Made by a program: the position numbers and the translations under genes. From the NCBI GenBank assembly GCA_048939765.1, contig JBHLPF010000021.1:1-53232 (forward strand): a DNA stretch of 53,232 bases, written 5' to 3'. The stretch is from Promethearchaeota archaeon (GTDB lineage Archaea > Asgardarchaeota > Thorarchaeia > Thorarchaeales > Thorarchaeaceae). Positions within the stretch are counted from its first letter, which is position 1, and each line of letters begins with the position of its first letter. Under the pieces are notes generated by a model. It saw only the letters and a program-made list of their open reading frames with translations. It did not search any database and was not told the origin of the DNA. This document shows, in pieces, positions 45,044 through 50,470 of the stretch.

Positions 45044-45883
45044 CTAAATCTGAATCAGCTCTATCTTCAATCCATCCCTGAGGCGTGCAATCTTCGGCTC
45101 CACTCGGTTGTTGTACGACGCACTGAATATGCTGATCAATCTCTCATCAAAGAACGTCTGGATGCCATCTGGAAACACCTGATGTGCTCTGAAAATTAAG
45201 GCGATGCCCAAGGATTCAGTAAATTCGTTGAAGGCCAACCGCCCATAAATCATTGAGCCGCCTCCCCTCCAATTGGGACTGAATCTGAAATCTCCCTCTG
45301 CAGGGTCATTCCATGTCAATTGGAATGCTATTTGGTCCCGAAAATCCTCATGGAATCTGTCTACTTGCTGAATCTGTTCGAGTGTTTCCACTCCTTCGGG
45401 TATTCCGCCATGACAGGAGAACACGCCGTTAGAACTCAAGCCTCCTAGTGGTAGCACCTTGAATCCTGAGCAATAGATATCGAATACTTCCGGTGAGTAC
45501 CTGGCTGTCACAGCGTTGTAAAATCCATATGCCCTAGCGATACTGTCGGACTCATGGTTGCCCCTCAATGTCATCACTCTATCTGGATATTCAATTGCCA
45601 GTGAAAACACAAGATTGACAGTTTCGACCTGTTGTGGTCCTCTATCAGCATAGTCACCAAGAAATACCATGGATGCATCTCTGTGATTCTGAATTAGTTC
45701 TTGAGCAACGAGAGCACTATGAAGCTCCCCATGCAGATCACCAACGTAGTAAGTGTTTCTTCGCGATGTTTCGACAACATTGGGGAGCGCCTTATACTGA
45801 TCACTCAAGGTTCCAACCAACTGCTCTATTTCCTCTGCAGTGAGGTCAACCTTGCCCTCTAGGATTTGTTTCGCAAGATGCAT
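45044..45883 (-). CDS. PPP-family serine/threonine protein phosphatase
   Basis: GDLHG, GDYADRG, RGNHE, HGG, WNDP, RAHQ and FSA motifs. Likely start is ATG 45883 (the track gives 45940). Confidence 0.92.
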   Translation of the reverse strand: MHLAKQILEGKVDLTAEEIEQLVGTLSDQYKALPNVVETSRRNTYYVGDLHGELHSALVAQELIQNHRDASMVFLGDYADRGPQQVETVNLVFSLAIEYPDRVMTLRGNHESDSIARAYGFYNAVTARYSPEVFDIYCSGFKVLPLGGLSSNGVFSCHGGIPEGVETLEQIQQVDRFHEDFRDQIAFQLTWNDPAEGDFRFSPNWRGGGSMIYGRLAFNEFTESLGIALIFRAHQVFPDGIQTFFDERLISIFSASYNNRVEPKIARLRDGLKIELIQI

Positions 45884-45930
45884 CTCAAATACATACTCTT
45901 GAGTGGCCCTAAAGAACTTGGCTCTTGGTG

Positions 45931-46431
45931 CTAATCCCACCCTAGAGCCTTGAATGCCTTTTCAACGGCATCCTGTGGAGTGAGAGCAGGGAGCACTACA
46001 TCATCTCTTCTCTCATCTATCTTGGTTCCAGCCAAACGTTCTGCCCATCCGCCTGAAGACACTAGTGCAATGACCGGCTTATCAGAAAACCAGGCTATTG
46101 CCATCTCGCTCAGTGTTCCGGCTGAGCCAGCGATTGCTATCACCGCGTCCCCTGTCTTTGCAACCAAGAAGTTCCTTGCATAGCCCATTCCCGTAGGAAC
46201 TGCAATGTCCACATACTTGTTTGCATGTTCCTTGAAGTCAGTGGGAAGAATTCCGATTGTAGTGCCTCTATGCCTTTTCGCTCCTCTGCATGCCGCTTCC
46301 ATCACACCACCTAACCCACCGCAGACAACAGCAGCACCGCGTTTTGCAATCTCTTCCCCAACTGCCTCGGCCAATTGGAGGACACTCTCATCACTGTCGG
46401 ACCCGCCTATAACGGAAATGCTCCTCATCAT
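45931..46431 (-). CDS. TIGR00725-family protein (LOG/Smf-like Rossmann fold)
   Basis: ISVIGG, CGGLGGVMEAACRGAK, GILP, TGMGYARN and GTLSE motifs. Likely start is ATG 46431 or 46428. Confidence 0.9.
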   Translation of the reverse strand: MMRSISVIGGSDSDESVLQLAEAVGEEIAKRGAAVVCGGLGGVMEAACRGAKRHRGTTIGILPTDFKEHANKYVDIAVPTGMGYARNFLVAKTGDAVIAIAGSAGTLSEMAIAWFSDKPVIALVSSGGWAERLAGTKIDERRDDVVLPALTPQDAVEKAFKALGWD

Positions 46432-46456
46432 CGGATTCACACTACTGATCTGTTCC

Positions 46457-47563
46457 TTAAGATTGAATTCTTCTAGCAATGAACTCGTAATCATTCTCGG
46501 AAAGCCTGCCGTCTTGTACCCTACGGTTGGCTTCATCCAGTAGTGTCCAGGATACTCCCTTCTTGATATATCCTAGCCTCGTGAGTTTCTCCTCGAGAAG
46601 TGGTTTGCTGCTCAAGTCATGAGGCAGCTCAATCTTTGAACATCTTGAGGCTTGGTAAAGTTGTTTCTCAACATGGTCGGGAATCTCTCGGGTCGCTAAT
46701 GCATAGATCTTGGCCAAAGTCAATAATGCTCTTGCACCAAGGTCTTCTGATGACCAGCCCGCATCAGTCCCTACGATGCAGATTTTCGACCTTCGGACGC
46801 ATTTCTTCAGGCAATACTGGCATATCACGGGTTCAAGAATGGCATCTCCCATCGAAAGATCAATCTTCAAGGTTCCTTCGTCAAGTTCTATGATACAATG
46901 GGCGCTTGTTGAGCTGATGCCAAATGCCTCTGCATTTATCCTGATTATCCCCATCTCTTCCTTCGAATTCGGTCGCAATTGATTGGGGCTCACAATTGGT
47001 TGTTGTGCTGGACATGCGTTTTCGGTCAGCAATACGATAGATGGGAGGTTTGGATTGCAGTCGTTACCGCACAACGTTGAAACAAGGCATCTTATTGTTT
47101 CTTCAACGCTTTCTAAATGGTGAACTGAGGGCTGGAATCCCAAGACCTTTTCGATGTGCCTAATAGCTTCTTCTGTTCCTCGTCCATTTCCTACAATGGC
47201 TACAATGAGGAATGCTTTGGACTTGTCGTTTAGATTTCTATAGAGATCTACAAATGAGTCAGCTTCTTCAGGTCTGAGCACTATTATCGCTGCCCTGTGC
47301 CCTCGCATGAATGTTTGAGTGAGGCCTGGAAACCTTTCCGTCGTGGGCAATGCCCACAACTGAAGCACAGCTTCTCTGCCATCGCCTAGTCTAGTCCTGG
47401 ATACTCCGATGCCTACTCCAACTGTTGAATGCAGTTGATAAGCTACCGTACCATCCGCAGCAATATTGAGAAATCCTGTTTGAAGAGCCGAATTCACACC
47501 AAGAACTAACGCCTTGTACATGACTCTGGCACTGTCAGGGATTCTGTTTGAACGGCGATTCAC
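46457..47563 (-). CDS. Degenerate Rab/Ras-like small GTPase domain fused to a Cys-rich (putative Zn-binding) domain
   Basis: YKALVLG, STVGVGI, LQLWALPTTERFPGLTQTFMRG..AAIIV and IVGN follow Rab motif order, but the G1/G3/G4 catalytic residues are lost. CQYCLKKC...C downstream. An alternative start is ATG 47521. Confidence 0.65.
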   Translation of the reverse strand: MNRRSNRIPDSARVMYKALVLGVNSALQTGFLNIAADGTVAYQLHSTVGVGIGVSRTRLGDGREAVLQLWALPTTERFPGLTQTFMRGHRAAIIVLRPEEADSFVDLYRNLNDKSKAFLIVAIVGNGRGTEEAIRHIEKVLGFQPSVHHLESVEETIRCLVSTLCGNDCNPNLPSIVLLTENACPAQQPIVSPNQLRPNSKEEMGIIRINAEAFGISSTSAHCIIELDEGTLKIDLSMGDAILEPVICQYCLKKCVRRSKICIVGTDAGWSSEDLGARALLTLAKIYALATREIPDHVEKQLYQASRCSKIELPHDLSSKPLLEEKLTRLGYIKKGVSWTLLDEANRRVQDGRLSENDYEFIARRIQS

Positions 47564-47854
47564 AGACTCACATTCTCAAAGACGAAAAAATAGATATGGG
47601 TCATGGATGCCTTGTCTTAAGATGACGAAGTATGATCAAATGGGACAAGAAGGCGAGTCCCAAGGTTAGGGAGAAATTTGCGAAGCTCACGATTCAACAG
47701 ATGTTATCTAAGGAAATCAAGCCAGATGACTGCTCAGGAATATACGGATTTTCCAAGAGTCATACGGCAGGCGATGATACACAGGAAGATTTCTGAGTTC
47801 GACATGATGAGATAACTTTAATCAGCCGTAGTCTTTCGTTTCTCCTTGATTAAG

Positions 47855-48214
47855 ATGGTCAAGGTATACAGGGCATCTGATGTAGATTTGAAGGGTCGGG
47901 CAGGCTACGGCGTCAAATACGTTGCAGATATCGCCCTCACAAACCCAATAGATAGTGCCGGCTTCATTCTTGTCAGGATTCCACCAGAGATGAAGACTAC
48001 TCCCCATGCCCATGCGAAGCTCGATGAAGCCTTCATGATTATGAATCCCACAAGAATGGGTGTTGACGAGACTCTTTTTGACCTCGATGAGGGGGATGTT
48101 GTTTTGGTTAAGCCCGGTGAACGGCATTGGTTTGAAACGCCTGACGGTCGAGATGTTATTATTCTGGCAGTGAAATTGCCAAACCTGAAAGATGACAAGA
48201 TTGAAACTGCTTGA
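47855..48214 (+). CDS. Cupin-domain protein
   Basis: PHAH...EAF and GDVVLVKPGERHWF cupin metal motifs. Likely start is ATG 47855. Confidence 0.88.
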   Translation: MVKVYRASDVDLKGRAGYGVKYVADIALTNPIDSAGFILVRIPPEMKTTPHAHAKLDEAFMIMNPTRMGVDETLFDLDEGDVVLVKPGERHWFETPDGRDVIILAVKLPNLKDDKIETA

Positions 48215-48222
48215 ATCTCACC

Positions 48223-48630
48223 CTAGTCGTCTTCTTCATAATCCCTGAACATCATGTCTAGGCGATCCCTTCCTAATGGATTGCGTGATTCAGGAACAGA
48301 CCTCTCAAGAATGCCATCAAGCTGCCTCCAGTCCTCATGTCGCTTCTTCCTCCCATACACTCCAGCCAGAGTTATGACAATATATGACAAAATTCCTACA
48401 ATGTAGAGTTCTGTCCTTGAAGCAAAGAAGGACGACATTAATGCCATCGCGAGCACAGCAATACCCCCCACTATCATCGTATTGATGAAGCAGTCACATC
48501 GTATCTCAAGTGCTGGAGGTCCAATAAGGAAATCATCTGGGTCCGATCCGGGAGCGCGATTTAGAATGTAGTTGAACCAGGAAGCAAGAAGCACTCCACC
48601 AAGAACGCCTAGAGCTACTATTGGGTCCAC
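48223..48630 (-). CDS. Hypothetical membrane protein (about 3 TM helices)
   Basis: Three hydrophobic stretches and an acidic C-terminus. Lies 25 nt downstream of the PIN gene on the same strand. Confidence 0.7.
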   Translation of the reverse strand: MDPIVALGVLGGVLLASWFNYILNRAPGSDPDDFLIGPPALEIRCDCFINTMIVGGIAVLAMALMSSFFASRTELYIVGILSYIVITLAGVYGRKKRHEDWRQLDGILERSVPESRNPLGRDRLDMMFRDYEEDD

Positions 48631-48655
48631 TTTTCACACATCCAATATGCACAGA

Positions 48656-50470
48656 TTACACTTCAGGTTCAGGTTCTGCGATTTTGAGCCAGCTGAAACC
48701 ATACTCTCCTTCATAGGAGACCTCTGAATCCTCGCCAGGAGTTATGATGAGCATGACCGCGTATTGGTCCATGACTTCTGGATCTGCATTCGCCAGGCTG
48801 AATTTACCTCCAGTTAGCGCTACCTTATGTCCTGTCTTTAAGCTTCCAAGCTCAGGTTGTTTCATGATGTCTATCCCGATTCTGACCTGAAGCTGTTCAT
48901 TTCTAACGACAAGCATTGCATCTCCGCCTATCGTTTCGACTGATAGGACATCCATCCAACTGCAAATCTCATCGGGCAGCTCCTCCAATTCAATGGGCTC
49001 CTTGGTAGTCATGTCTTCTATTGGCGACAAATTGCCTTGAATCTCGTTTAGGATTGGAGTTATCTTTGATGTGTCCCAGCCTTTCTTTACAAACATCTTG
49101 AGAGCATGTTCGGCTATCTTCTCCAAAGCAGGCTTGAATCTGTCATGCGATGATGATGAGATCTTGTAAAGCATGAGGAAGGATGCAAGAGCCCCTTCTT
49201 CCTTGCCATAAGCAACGCCGATTTTATATGAAGTCACAACTAGCTGCCATGCGTTATCATGTTCATCGAATTGAATTGCATGCTTTGCGATGTCGCTTAA
49301 TAATCTAAGAGTTGCAGATGGGTATTGGAGCTTGCTTTTTGTGAGAGAGAAGCCGCCCATGAATTCTCTCAAGACTTGCATGATGACGTATAGACCTTCA
49401 GAGGTTTCAATCATATCTTCGAGGCCTACTCTCCGAATCATCGAGTCGTAAAGGGAGTAATAGTAATCTATCTCGTCGTAATCCTCGCGAATCATAGCCA
49501 GAACAATTCTCACGAAGAACACACTTGCCTTGAGTTCATCGTTGGAAACTCCAGCGAACATGAGGAGCCTGAACGCCTCATCAGAGATTGTCAGTGCCTC
49601 CTCAATACCCTTCCTGGTTCCTCGGTAAAGGTGACAAATCATCTCCAAGTAGTAGAGAAACAGTGTTAGGTCTGATGCATGGTGAACAAGCTTCGAATGG
49701 GTGTCCGAATCGTTCGTGAGAGTTGAAACTATAAGGAGTCGTTCGATCTCATTTTGAATTGCTTCAATCTCTTTAGCCAAGGTGTCGTACTTTCCATTCC
49801 TGAAGTCATCAAACATGGTAGGAATTCCAGCTTTTATATCCTCAAGGAAGTCAAGAATGAAAAGTGGCTGTCCCCTGGAAAGCTGTCTGTCGAGTCCCTC
49901 AGCTGGTGCCTTGACTGTTCTCAACACGCGCATTGCATGTTCTTCTATGAGCCTAATTCTTGTCACCGGGTCATATGCTTCCTGACGAGCAATGCTGTAT
50001 CTCACTTCCTCTCCATAGATTCTCTCACGAAGTACCGACAGCTTCTGCTTTAGCTCCTCGTCGTCGATTGATTCCATCAACTCCAAGACAAAAGCCGAAC
50101 CGACTAATCCTTCCACATCGACTTTGATGTCCTGAATTGTGTTGAGCAGCTTCAAGTCACTCGTGACTATCTTTGACTTCTTGACTCTCATCGCCCCAAG
50201 AATGAGTGACATATCATTGTGTTGCGGAAGGGAGCTCTCAGGCTTATTGATGCTTTCAATAAGCTCCTTGATGTCCTTTGTGAGAGTTTCGTCAATCTGC
50301 ACGATTTGCTCTGCCTCTCTCCTTAGGTACCATCTGAGCTCCTGAAAGACCTGACGGGTGACCCAGAGTTCCATTCCTGCTTTATCAGCCGCCTCCTTCA
50401 CAATGAAGACATCTTTTGGTCGATTGCTGAAACCGCTGATGAAGAAGTTTGCATCAAGATATACGCGCAT
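48656..50470 (-). CDS. Large PIN-domain protein (N-terminal PIN, helical middle, beta-rich C-terminus)
   Basis: MRVYLDANFFI, VFQEL, NDMSLI and IVTSDLKL supply the four PIN acidic positions. Confidence 0.78.
   Translation of the reverse strand: MRVYLDANFFISGFSNRPKDVFIVKEAADKAGMELWVTRQVFQELRWYLRREAEQIVQIDETLTKDIKELIESINKPESSLPQHNDMSLILGAMRVKKSKIVTSDLKLLNTIQDIKVDVEGLVGSAFVLELMESIDDEELKQKLSVLRERIYGEEVRYSIARQEAYDPVTRIRLIEEHAMRVLRTVKAPAEGLDRQLSRGQPLFILDFLEDIKAGIPTMFDDFRNGKYDTLAKEIEAIQNEIERLLIVSTLTNDSDTHSKLVHHASDLTLFLYYLEMICHLYRGTRKGIEEALTISDEAFRLLMFAGVSNDELKASVFFVRIVLAMIREDYDEIDYYYSLYDSMIRRVGLEDMIETSEGLYVIMQVLREFMGGFSLTKSKLQYPSATLRLLSDIAKHAIQFDEHDNAWQLVVTSYKIGVAYGKEEGALASFLMLYKISSSSHDRFKPALEKIAEHALKMFVKKGWDTSKITPILNEIQGNLSPIEDMTTKEPIELEELPDEICSWMDVLSVETIGGDAMLVVRNEQLQVRIGIDIMKQPELGSLKTGHKVALTGGKFSLANADPEVMDQYAVMLIITPGEDSEVSYEGEYGFSWLKIAEPEPEV

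Follow-up and report, generated by a model that had tools for sequence, protein, structure and literature searches.

What use might an archaeon make of a Rab-type domain that no longer carries any of the motifs by which GTPases hold their nucleotide? The question is raised by a gene in the window, by which is meant the whole 53,232-nucleotide stretch analysed here, taken from contig JBHLPF010000021.1 of a Promethearchaeota archaeon (assembly GCA_048939765.1). The gene (46457–47563) has a GTG start and lies on the reverse strand, as do all of its parts and the two downstream genes described below. It encodes a protein of 368 amino acids in which a Rab-like pseudo-GTPase is followed by a linker, a domain with a predicted zinc knuckle and a UBC-like model, and a helical tail. 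The findings set out here point with high confidence to a conserved Rab-fold domain that is nucleotide-dead. They also indicate that the protein probably functions together with a small ubiquitin-like protein (Ubl) of the SAMP2 type.

The host is a Thorarchaeota-type Asgard archaeon whose genome assembly amounts to 3.37 Mb in 108 contigs and is 88.5% complete. Public data hold one identical protein (P0001) and 37 further clusters of homologues, 350–377 amino acids long and almost all from metagenome-assembled genomes of Thorarchaeota. Most of them are named 'hypothetical protein', just as the first-pass annotation of this locus, made from the DNA letters, had foreseen. The open reading frame (ORF) and every string which that annotation had read from it are present in the translation, namely YKALVLGVNSALQT, STVGVGI, LQLWALPTTERF, TQTFMRG..AAIIV, IVGNGR and CQYCLKKC-x6-C. 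The sequencing runs whose DNA holds the gene are sediment, mangrove and marsh metagenomes, and no RNA run among those listed was found to hold it. No description of a pseudo-GTPase fused to a UBC-like domain was found in PMC10933270, PMC12962969 or bioRxiv 10.1101/2020.10.19.343400, nor under the terms pseudoGTPase and archaea, and one may nonetheless exist.

A Rab fold that has shed its G motifs

The N-terminal domain (residues 13–165; 47069–47527) was recognised as Rab-like by sequence search, structure prediction and structure comparison. A phmmer search of PDB sequences returned Rab35 (E=4e-8, over residues 15–127), followed by dozens of Rab1, Rab3, Rab8, Rab18 and Ypt1 chains. An AlphaFold2 model of the domain, built from 18 orthologues, has the full b1-a1-b2-b3-a2-b4-a3-b5-a4-b6-a5 order of six strands and five helices, and Foldseek matched this model to PDB structures of Rab3, Rab8, Rab1 and Rab35 with a probability of 1.0 and target template-modelling (TM) scores of 0.60–0.67. 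The Rab likeness proposed at first sight is therefore real, and so is the Ras-like fold, even though both relevant Pfam models score below their gathering thresholds (Roc, PF08477, 24.6 bits against a cut-off of 27; Ras, PF00071, 21.3 against 21.6).

The nucleotide-binding motifs, on the other hand, have been replaced throughout, as the HMMER alignment to Rab35 makes plain. At G1 (residues 22–29; 47477–47500), GDSGVGKS has become GVNSALQT, with the second glycine changed to leucine and the lysine to glutamine; the family consensus there reads G-x-D-x-A-L-Q-T, with no GK[ST]. At G3 and switch II (residues 70–76; 47336–47356), WDTAGQE has become WALPTTE, with loss of the aspartate and the glycine, while the neighbouring QLW and R77 are invariant. 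At G4, the GNKxD stretch has become GNGRG, so that GNGR (residues 125–128; 47180–47191) stands where NKxD would be expected. An alignment of 18 orthologues reaching down to 34% identity contains the P-loop lysine, the G3 DxxG and the NKxD in 0 of 18 sequences. The same alignment has 29 invariant columns, among them L44, G49, G53, V54, Q68-L69-W70, R77 and G88 at positions that resemble RabF1, RabF2, switch II and RabF4.

Thus the two halves of the earlier claim, that G1, G3 and G4 had been lost and that the switch and RabF-like residues had been retained, are both upheld. Since the loss of the G motifs is common to all 38 orthologue clusters while the RabF-like residues remain invariant, the protein is a conserved pseudo-GTPase and not a case of recent decay. 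Decay restricted to one lineage is refuted by the same orthologues, where the losses are consistent down to about 34–35% identity with the switch residues kept.

Outside the Thorarchaeota, the losses are less complete. A pattern scan of 155 proteins found GxxxxGK[ST] in one of the roughly 90 that bear the C-terminal domain of this family (the C-domain, described below). This was P0082 of Helarchaeota (L004:1282–2355), labelled 'Rab family GTPase' by its sources, which has an intact P-loop, GAVGTGKT, together with WDIAAQE. A maximum-likelihood tree built from the C-domain places P0082 close to the base. Relatives of the Promethearchaeota, Loki, Freya and Hel types have lost G1 and kept the W-D, and neither G1 nor the G3 aspartate survives in the Thor clade (41 rows, support 100/96). 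This tree is compatible with the stepwise decay of a once-active Rab-like domain to which the C-domain had already been joined, the order of losses being unproven because the midpoint root serves for drawing only.

P0082 also carries CGAKAE at the NKxD position, and two VapB/VapC (PIN) pairs follow its gene. In a Thorarchaeota genome assembled as a single contig, a match to the family (G134:C1:2156449–2157114) covers only model positions 4–225 within an ORF of 293 amino acids, with no SLOG gene found, and may be a truncated or frameshifted copy.

With the P-loop lysine, the G3 aspartate and glycine and the G4 NKxD all gone, the domain is expected not to bind nucleotide, and a role as a scaffold would suit what is left of it. 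It is conceivable, of course, that a nucleotide or some other phosphorylated ligand still binds to the domain non-canonically and that the protein works as an atypical switch. Thr29 and Thr47 occupy the sites where G1 and G2 have their Mg-binding Ser/Thr, the A-L-Q-T-G-F that replaces the P-loop is strongly conserved among the 18 orthologues, and P0082 keeps both G1 and G3. Yet the P-loop lysine, the second P-loop glycine, the G3 aspartate and glycine and the whole NKxD are missing in every member of the Thor clade, and we know of no Ras-superfamily protein that binds GTP without the P-loop lysine, all of which makes a surviving switch very improbable.

Pseudo-GTPases that bind no nucleotide occur in eukaryotes, where CENP-M and the pG1 and pG2 domains of p190RhoGAP are examples. 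These share with the window protein a G fold kept as an interaction module and a loss of motifs that is conserved across orthologues. They differ from it in that the window protein is archaeal, has a Rab-like ancestor and is fused to a predicted zinc-bearing UBC-like domain; homology is limited to the superfamily, and the nucleotide-free state is in this case a prediction. If that prediction is correct, a conserved prokaryotic pseudo-GTPase would mean that 'dead' Ras-superfamily domains serve as fixed interaction modules outside eukaryotes as well. With active Rab GTPases (human Rab35, Rab1, Rab3 and Rab8, and Thor-Rab, PDB 7EZB), the window protein has in common the fold, the order of strands and helices and the conserved RabF1-like TVGVGI, RabF2-like LQLW and RabF4-like FMRG; unlike them, it has no G1 lysine, G3 DxxG or G4 NKxD, scores below the Pfam cut-offs and carries a C-terminal extension of 200 amino acids. 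Thor-Rab itself, from Thorarchaeota, binds GDP and hydrolyses GTP (PMC10933270).

A conserved Asgard domain and its cysteines

The Rab-fold domain leads into a linker (residues 166–200; 46964–47068; model predicted local distance difference test, pLDDT, 68–88) with one extra strand and a Cys184-Pro motif that is invariant among Thorarchaeota. The C-domain follows (residues 201–309; 46637–46963), with a predicted a-b-b-b-(knuckle)-b-loop-a-a topology whose nearest known fold is that of UBC, UEV and RWD domains. Behind it lies a three-helix tail (residues 310–368; 46460–46636), in which L341, A345, R348 and G352-R-L-S355 are invariant and whose W[DE]GRIPP motif recurs in the standalone Helarchaeota forms P0092 and P0098.

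An exhaustive HMMER search yielded 121 hits, which besides the Thor orthologues comprise two-domain relatives of 300–390 amino acids and proteins of 120–280 amino acids consisting of the C-domain only. Every labelled member belongs to the Asgard archaea (Thor, Loki, Freya, Hel, Hod and Promethearchaeota). The C-domain occurs in 31 of 121 sampled Asgard genomes, in a single copy each, and is distributed as 7/17 in the window's own family (f1) plus the window's own genome, 15/17 in f12, 5/6 in f19, 2/15 in f9 and 1/1 in f18. The C-domain is therefore the most widely conserved part of the protein and also stands alone without any G domain. The first-pass annotation was right about the cysteines of this half of the protein, which is more than a mere appendage.

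On the searches made, the C-domain belongs to no catalogued family. Neither Pfam nor NCBIfam has a match in the C-terminal half of the window protein, and Pfam has none in the same region of the relatives scanned. A profile of the C-domain alone gave one chance match among PDB sequences (E=1.1). In the ESM Atlas, the feature search reached AbiEii-type clusters at 0.83–0.85, below the useful range, and the fold search returned assorted DUFs at TM scores of at most 0.42.

Two conserved features stand out within it. The first is CQYCLKKC (46799–46822) in the b3-b4 loop, a putative metal knuckle that contributes Cys248, Cys251 and Cys255 and is probably completed by Cys308 (46640–46642). The second is CIVGTDAGWS (46751–46780), a loop after b4 that reads Cys262-x7-Trp270-Ser, with the same Cys-to-Trp spacing as in the ubiquitin-conjugating enzymes (E2s) of Asgard archaea (VCVGILGKDWTP). 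Across 75 diverse sequences, C248, C251, C262, G269 and C308 are invariant and C255, I263, W270, K285, P295 and Q301 near-invariant, which gives a CxxC knuckle with two further conserved cysteines.

The five conserved cysteines do not all behave alike. Minimal homologues of 120–160 amino acids, from genus g21 of family f12, lack C248, C251, C255 and C308 altogether and keep '..LVLC-VTLESTP-W-AN'. As these forms drop the four cysteines together and retain the Cys-x7-Trp loop, they suggest that C248, C251, C255 and C308 make up one dispensable metal site and that C262 is something else. The predicted strand register, which is our own geometric inference, places C262 and the CxxC loop at opposite ends of b4 and likewise favours the other four as the metal site. 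A structural metal site at C248, C251, C255 and C308, probably holding zinc, is on this evidence quite likely.

Another thought is that the CX2CX3CX6C...C array binds an iron-sulfur cluster and that the protein is a redox or oxygen sensor. The five conserved cysteines, of which three are closely spaced, and the anaerobic sediment life of the hosts would agree with this, but homologues without four of the cysteines exist, no iron-sulfur family was hit and the link to a Ubl would go unexplained. The spacing, moreover, matches no classical 4Fe-4S or radical-SAM motif known to us, and such a sensor must be considered highly unlikely.

In genus g21 of family f12, the minimal C-domain genes, without zinc-knuckle cysteines (loci L068–L078; for example, L078:1498–1857 and L078:2005–2376), have as direct neighbours, at every locus looked at, a gene for profilin (PF00235, 26.6 bits with a cut-off of 25) and one resembling GAPDH, which could possibly indicate a link with the cytoskeleton.

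Predicted fold of the C-domain and its possible relation to E2 enzymes

An AlphaFold2 model of the C-domain from the 75-sequence alignment reached a pLDDT of 92 and a predicted TM score of 0.75. It consists of a helix (201–213), strands 222–226, 230–235 and 241–245, a short turn with C248-x2-C251, strand 259–261, the loop C262-IVGTDAG-W270-S, helices 277–291 and 296–305 with C308 just behind, and three more helices. When the model was compared by VIA-align with 48,161 PDB cluster representatives, at least 31 of the top 50 matches were E2, UEV, Atg3/Atg10, bacterial E2 or RWD structures. The E2s among these 50 were UbcH5, Ubc9, Ubc13, UBE2E1, UBE2F, UBE2S, UBE2W, UBE2O and Ubc8, joined by the E2-like Atg3 and Atg10 and the bacterial Cap2 and 8tyz_C; the UEV group was represented by Tsg101, Vps23, VPS37A, BRE and FTS, plus FANCL, and the RWD group by Ctf19/Mcm21, CENP-O/P, Knl1 and Ltn1. 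These matches of a predicted model tip the balance slightly toward a UBC-superfamily fold.

With the E2/UBC superfamily (Atg3, Atg10, Cap2 and Bil-type E2s, and the inactive UEV and RWD), the window domain would share a topology of helix, four-strand meander, loop and two helices, a conserved cysteine after strand 4 that is followed by x7-Trp-Ser as in Asgard E2s, and a genomic link to a Ubl. Asgard E2s (26 fetched, then 43) read ..HPN-x5-7-C-x7-W-[TS]-P, and the C262-x7-W270-S spacing equals that of the 26, in a register taken from the predicted model. The hhalign program aligns C262 with the catalytic cysteine and W270 with the E2 tryptophan at a non-significant P=0.05 (26 E2s) or 0.039 (43), with a probability of about 1%. 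This likeness was rejected as support, since block-shuffled E2 alignments equalled or exceeded its score in 53 of 60 trials, and 16.2 against 17.5 was reached with an alignment of unrelated PPP phosphatases. As far as sequence goes, membership in the E2 family fails.

The C-domain might also be read as a non-catalytic domain, either UEV- or RWD-like or a new zinc-stabilised interaction domain, in which all five cysteines are structural (Cys262 being a ligand or buried) and any genuine link with a Ubl is non-covalent. This reading overlaps with the one we prefer and differs from it in excluding E2-like chemistry. It draws on the fact that UEV and RWD domains turn up among the structural matches as often as true E2s do, on the lack of both an HPN motif and a significant E2 profile match, and on the g28 lineage, where C255 is absent and C262 may serve as the fourth ligand. 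It sits less easily with the predicted separation of C262 from the CxxC loop by the length of b4 and with the minimal forms that keep the Cys-x7-Trp loop after losing the other four cysteines. UEV and RWD domains characteristically lack the catalytic cysteine, and a near-invariant cysteine at the equivalent site argues against membership in either group without excluding it. An entirely non-catalytic domain seems to us rather improbable. True E2-type thioester chemistry at C262 is a separate matter, and on the present evidence less likely than not.

A canonical E2 (PF00179) is found in 88 of 121 Asgard genomes overall. It was found in 0 of 17 sampled genomes of family f1, and none scores above threshold in the window's own genome, which has one ThiF-type activating enzyme (E1; G000:C94:4367–5071) and eight ThiS-family genes. 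The sole PF00179 match in that genome reaches 17 bits and has an internal stop (C46:94575–94721).

A candidate partner among SAMP2-like Ubls

At six loci of the Loki/Freya type (L005, L056 and L058–L061), a 65-amino-acid SAMP2-like gene ending ..LPRIAGG lies 20–30 nt upstream of the pseudo-GTPase gene on the same strand; the copy at L058:732–929 matches Pfam SAMP2 (PF21965) at 29 bits against a cut-off of 27 and ends in AGG. On a Helarchaeota contig, a related gene of 68 amino acids (..LPKIKGGGT) is situated 455 nt upstream of a standalone C-domain gene, and on a Promethearchaeota contig (L006) the divergent neighbour is a ThiS-family gene (ThiS, 44.7 bits) ending in GGG. Adjacency to a gene of the SAMP2/ThiS type is therefore seen in three lineages outside the Thorarchaeota, and seven other non-Thor contexts have no Ubl gene nearby.

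The window's own genome has a copy on another contig (G000:C80:61194–61379; L100:5995–6183). It encodes 62 amino acids ending ..LPLIAGG, scores 24.4 bits, below the cut-off of 27, and is 68% identical to the L058 protein over 44 amino acids. This gene is a single-gene insertion between a cluster of HMG-CoA synthase, thiolase and OB genes and a convergent Asn-synthase-like PP-loop gene, in a synteny found in five other Thorarchaeota genomes. A scan of the genome with Pfam ThiS had not picked it up.

Among 41 genomes of the window's own family, the pseudo-GTPase and the SAMP2-like gene are each present in 21. Both are present in 19 genomes and both absent in 18, while 2 genomes have only the pseudo-GTPase and 2 have only the SAMP2-like gene. 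A naive Fisher test gives p 1.7e-7, a value that overstates the support since genomes of one family are non-independent and no species tree was applied; restricted to genomes of 90% completeness or higher, the table reads 14/1/0/13. Where the two genes vary inside genera g6 and g9, they do so concordantly. Of the discordant genomes, G016 and G141 are also without the Asn-synthase-like gene, with the next gene along at a contig end, and G142 and G133 are without SLOG; because a near-universal neighbour of the missing gene is absent as well, all four appear to be assembly gaps.

Genes flanking the two loci served as controls and are near-universal, with no co-variation: SLOG, next to the pseudo-GTPase gene, in 34/41, the Asn-synthase-like PP-loop gene in 37/41 and a 139-amino-acid gene in 40/41. 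Co-variation of the neighbours of the SAMP2-like gene was rejected on the last two counts. In the phylum-wide sample, 29 of the 31 genomes with a C-domain have a SAMP2-like hit. Two unlinked single-gene polymorphisms at otherwise conserved loci thus track each other, and this is good evidence for a shared function of the pseudo-GTPase and the SAMP2-like Ubl. The pattern also offers natural 'knock-outs' for comparative work in Thorarchaeota.

The nearest described system is the sampylation of Haloferax volcanii (SAMP1, SAMP2 and SAMP3, with the E1-like UbaA). There as here, small beta-grasp proteins of the SAMP2/ThiS type that end in GG are found, those of the Asgard lineages being 62–68 amino acids long and accompanied in the window's genome by one ThiF-type E1. 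Sampylation as described needs no E2; the Ubl considered here belongs to Asgard archaea, not haloarchaea, and co-varies with a dedicated accessory protein. A more fitting name for what was at first called a Cys-rich domain would be a UBC-like domain, specific to Asgard archaea, probably stabilised by zinc and tied to a SAMP2-type modifier.

How the two modules might work together

A mechanism that would accommodate these observations, and which on balance we slightly favour, is that the protein couples a nucleotide-free Rab-like docking module to a second domain, E2-like or Ubl-binding, which acts jointly with the SAMP2-type modifier. The first module (residues 13–165) would most likely be a permanently 'locked' docking surface rather than a switch, because its conserved switch- and interswitch-like face has been kept without the nucleotide motifs. 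The second module (residues 201–309) would be a UBC-like alpha/beta domain held together by a Cys4 knuckle, probably with zinc at C248, C251, C255 and C308, with the separate conserved Cys262-x7-Trp-Ser loop sitting where E2 enzymes hold their active-site cysteine. This second module would handle the SAMP2-type Ubl ending in Gly-Gly that is encoded on the other contig. It would do so either by binding the Ubl non-covalently or by carrying it as a thioester on Cys262 after activation by the genome's single ThiF-type E1, the thioester being somewhat likelier within this reading. The first module might then direct the Ubl-loaded second module to a target or site.

A number of observations weigh against such a mechanism. 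In Thorarchaeota, the Ubl gene is not adjacent to the pseudo-GTPase gene, and SAMP2-like genes also occur without a C-domain, mainly in f9 and f24. C262 is replaced by serine in one representative (P0112), and its retention in minimal forms that have none of the other four cysteines is weak evidence of its conservation, all of these forms being from a single genus; the absence of C255 from the g28 lineage makes the assignment of the metal-ligand cysteines provisional. Pfam, NCBIfam and the PDB profile search give no sequence link between the C-domain and E2s, and the hhalign comparison with Asgard E2s behaves like its controls. Finally, the HPN motif is absent, the residues before C262 being KCVRRSKI.

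The coupling of a Rab-type domain and the ubiquitin machinery in one polypeptide, as proposed here, has a parallel in Rab40, a Rab GTPase whose SOCS box serves to recruit the Cullin-5 ubiquitin ligase. Rab40 is an active GTPase, however, which recruits an E3 through its SOCS box and has no UBC-like domain, and its fusion is evolutionarily unrelated to that of the window protein.

In its boldest form, the proposal would make the C-domain a true, highly divergent E2 that carries the SAMP2-type modifier on Cys262 and is aimed by a fused, permanently 'on' Rab-like pseudo-GTPase. This is speculative, and we think it less probable than not. If it were true, the ThiS/SAMP branch of archaeal Ubls would have its first dedicated conjugating enzyme, in Asgard lineages that include the Thorarchaeota in which no canonical E2 was found, and archaea would have joined Rab-type and ubiquitin-type machineries independently of eukaryotes. 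The small GTPases and ubiquitin systems of Asgard archaea are studied as foreshadowing eukaryotic cell biology, and an uncatalogued domain nearest to the E2 fold and fused to a pseudo-GTPase would add to both. With the SAMP2-like modifier as a concrete candidate partner, the question of an E2-like factor for SAMP/ThiS modifiers would become testable at the bench.

SLOG, PPP phosphatase and other genes of the locus

Immediately downstream of the pseudo-GTPase gene lie a SLOG gene of the LDcluster4/TIGR00725 type (45931–46431; Pfam PF18306, 8e-44) and a PPP-family phosphatase gene (45044–45940; Pfam Metallophos, 9e-25) in which GDLHG, GDYADRG, GNHE and HGG are intact. The SLOG ORF as listed (45931–46536, 201 amino acids) overlaps the pseudo-GTPase gene by 80 nt; orthologues are mostly about 167 amino acids long and align from Met36, so the start is probably at M36 (46431), which leaves a gap of 25 nt. 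In Thorarchaeota, the conserved order runs pseudo-GTPase, SLOG, PPP phosphatase, DUF362, UbiA, PHP and LPG-synthase, with PIN-604, a small membrane protein and a divergent cupin upstream. Given this arrangement, the protein could be a pure scaffold for the neighbouring SLOG and phosphatase, with both its dead Rab domain and its cysteine-rich domain acting as protein-protein interaction modules that assemble or regulate a nucleotide-sensing/phosphatase unit, and with no part for a Ubl. The MRAS-SHOC2-PP1C complex of eukaryotes provides a loose analogue of a Ras-type scaffold with a phosphatase, and the phosphatase here has all of its catalytic motifs. The pseudo-GTPase-SLOG-PPP order, with gaps of 15–25 nt or overlaps, is seen in 10/10 Thorarchaeota loci examined, down to 35% identity.

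The distribution of the genes nevertheless speaks against this scaffold. SLOG is near-universal in the family with or without the pseudo-GTPase (20/20 among high-quality genomes, and 34/41 overall against 21/41 for the pseudo-GTPase). Four genomes that lack the pseudo-GTPase show PIN-TM-cupin, a gap of about 110–400 nt and SLOG-PPP at the locus, a clean single-gene absence with both sides intact. The relatives outside the Thorarchaeota do not sit beside SLOG or PPP, and the scaffold gives no account of the co-occurrence with the SAMP2-like gene. Co-variation of SLOG and PPP with the pseudo-GTPase was accordingly rejected, and since the pair persists without the pseudo-GTPase, it is best regarded as context and not as a set of obligate partners. 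A pure scaffold for SLOG and PPP is, in our estimation, distinctly improbable, and a looser functional connection with them, for example through co-transcription, may exist beside the favoured partnership with the SAMP2-like Ubl. A predicted complex of the phosphatase, SLOG and the pseudo-GTPase scored 0.00, which yields no verdict and is not evidence either way.

The upstream block of the window (47846–50470) is itself well conserved, even in the genomes without the pseudo-GTPase. There, the 604-amino-acid protein of the PIN_12 type retains 69–72% identity, the 135-amino-acid membrane protein 38–59% (with no match in one of the four) and the cupin 43–62%. The 604-amino-acid PIN protein has no adjacent antitoxin-like gene. 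At two loci, one from Promethearchaeota and one from family f9, the pseudo-GTPase/C-domain gene is followed directly by a YjbQ/UPF0047 gene (L006:6068–6493 and L065:1177–1599, respectively).

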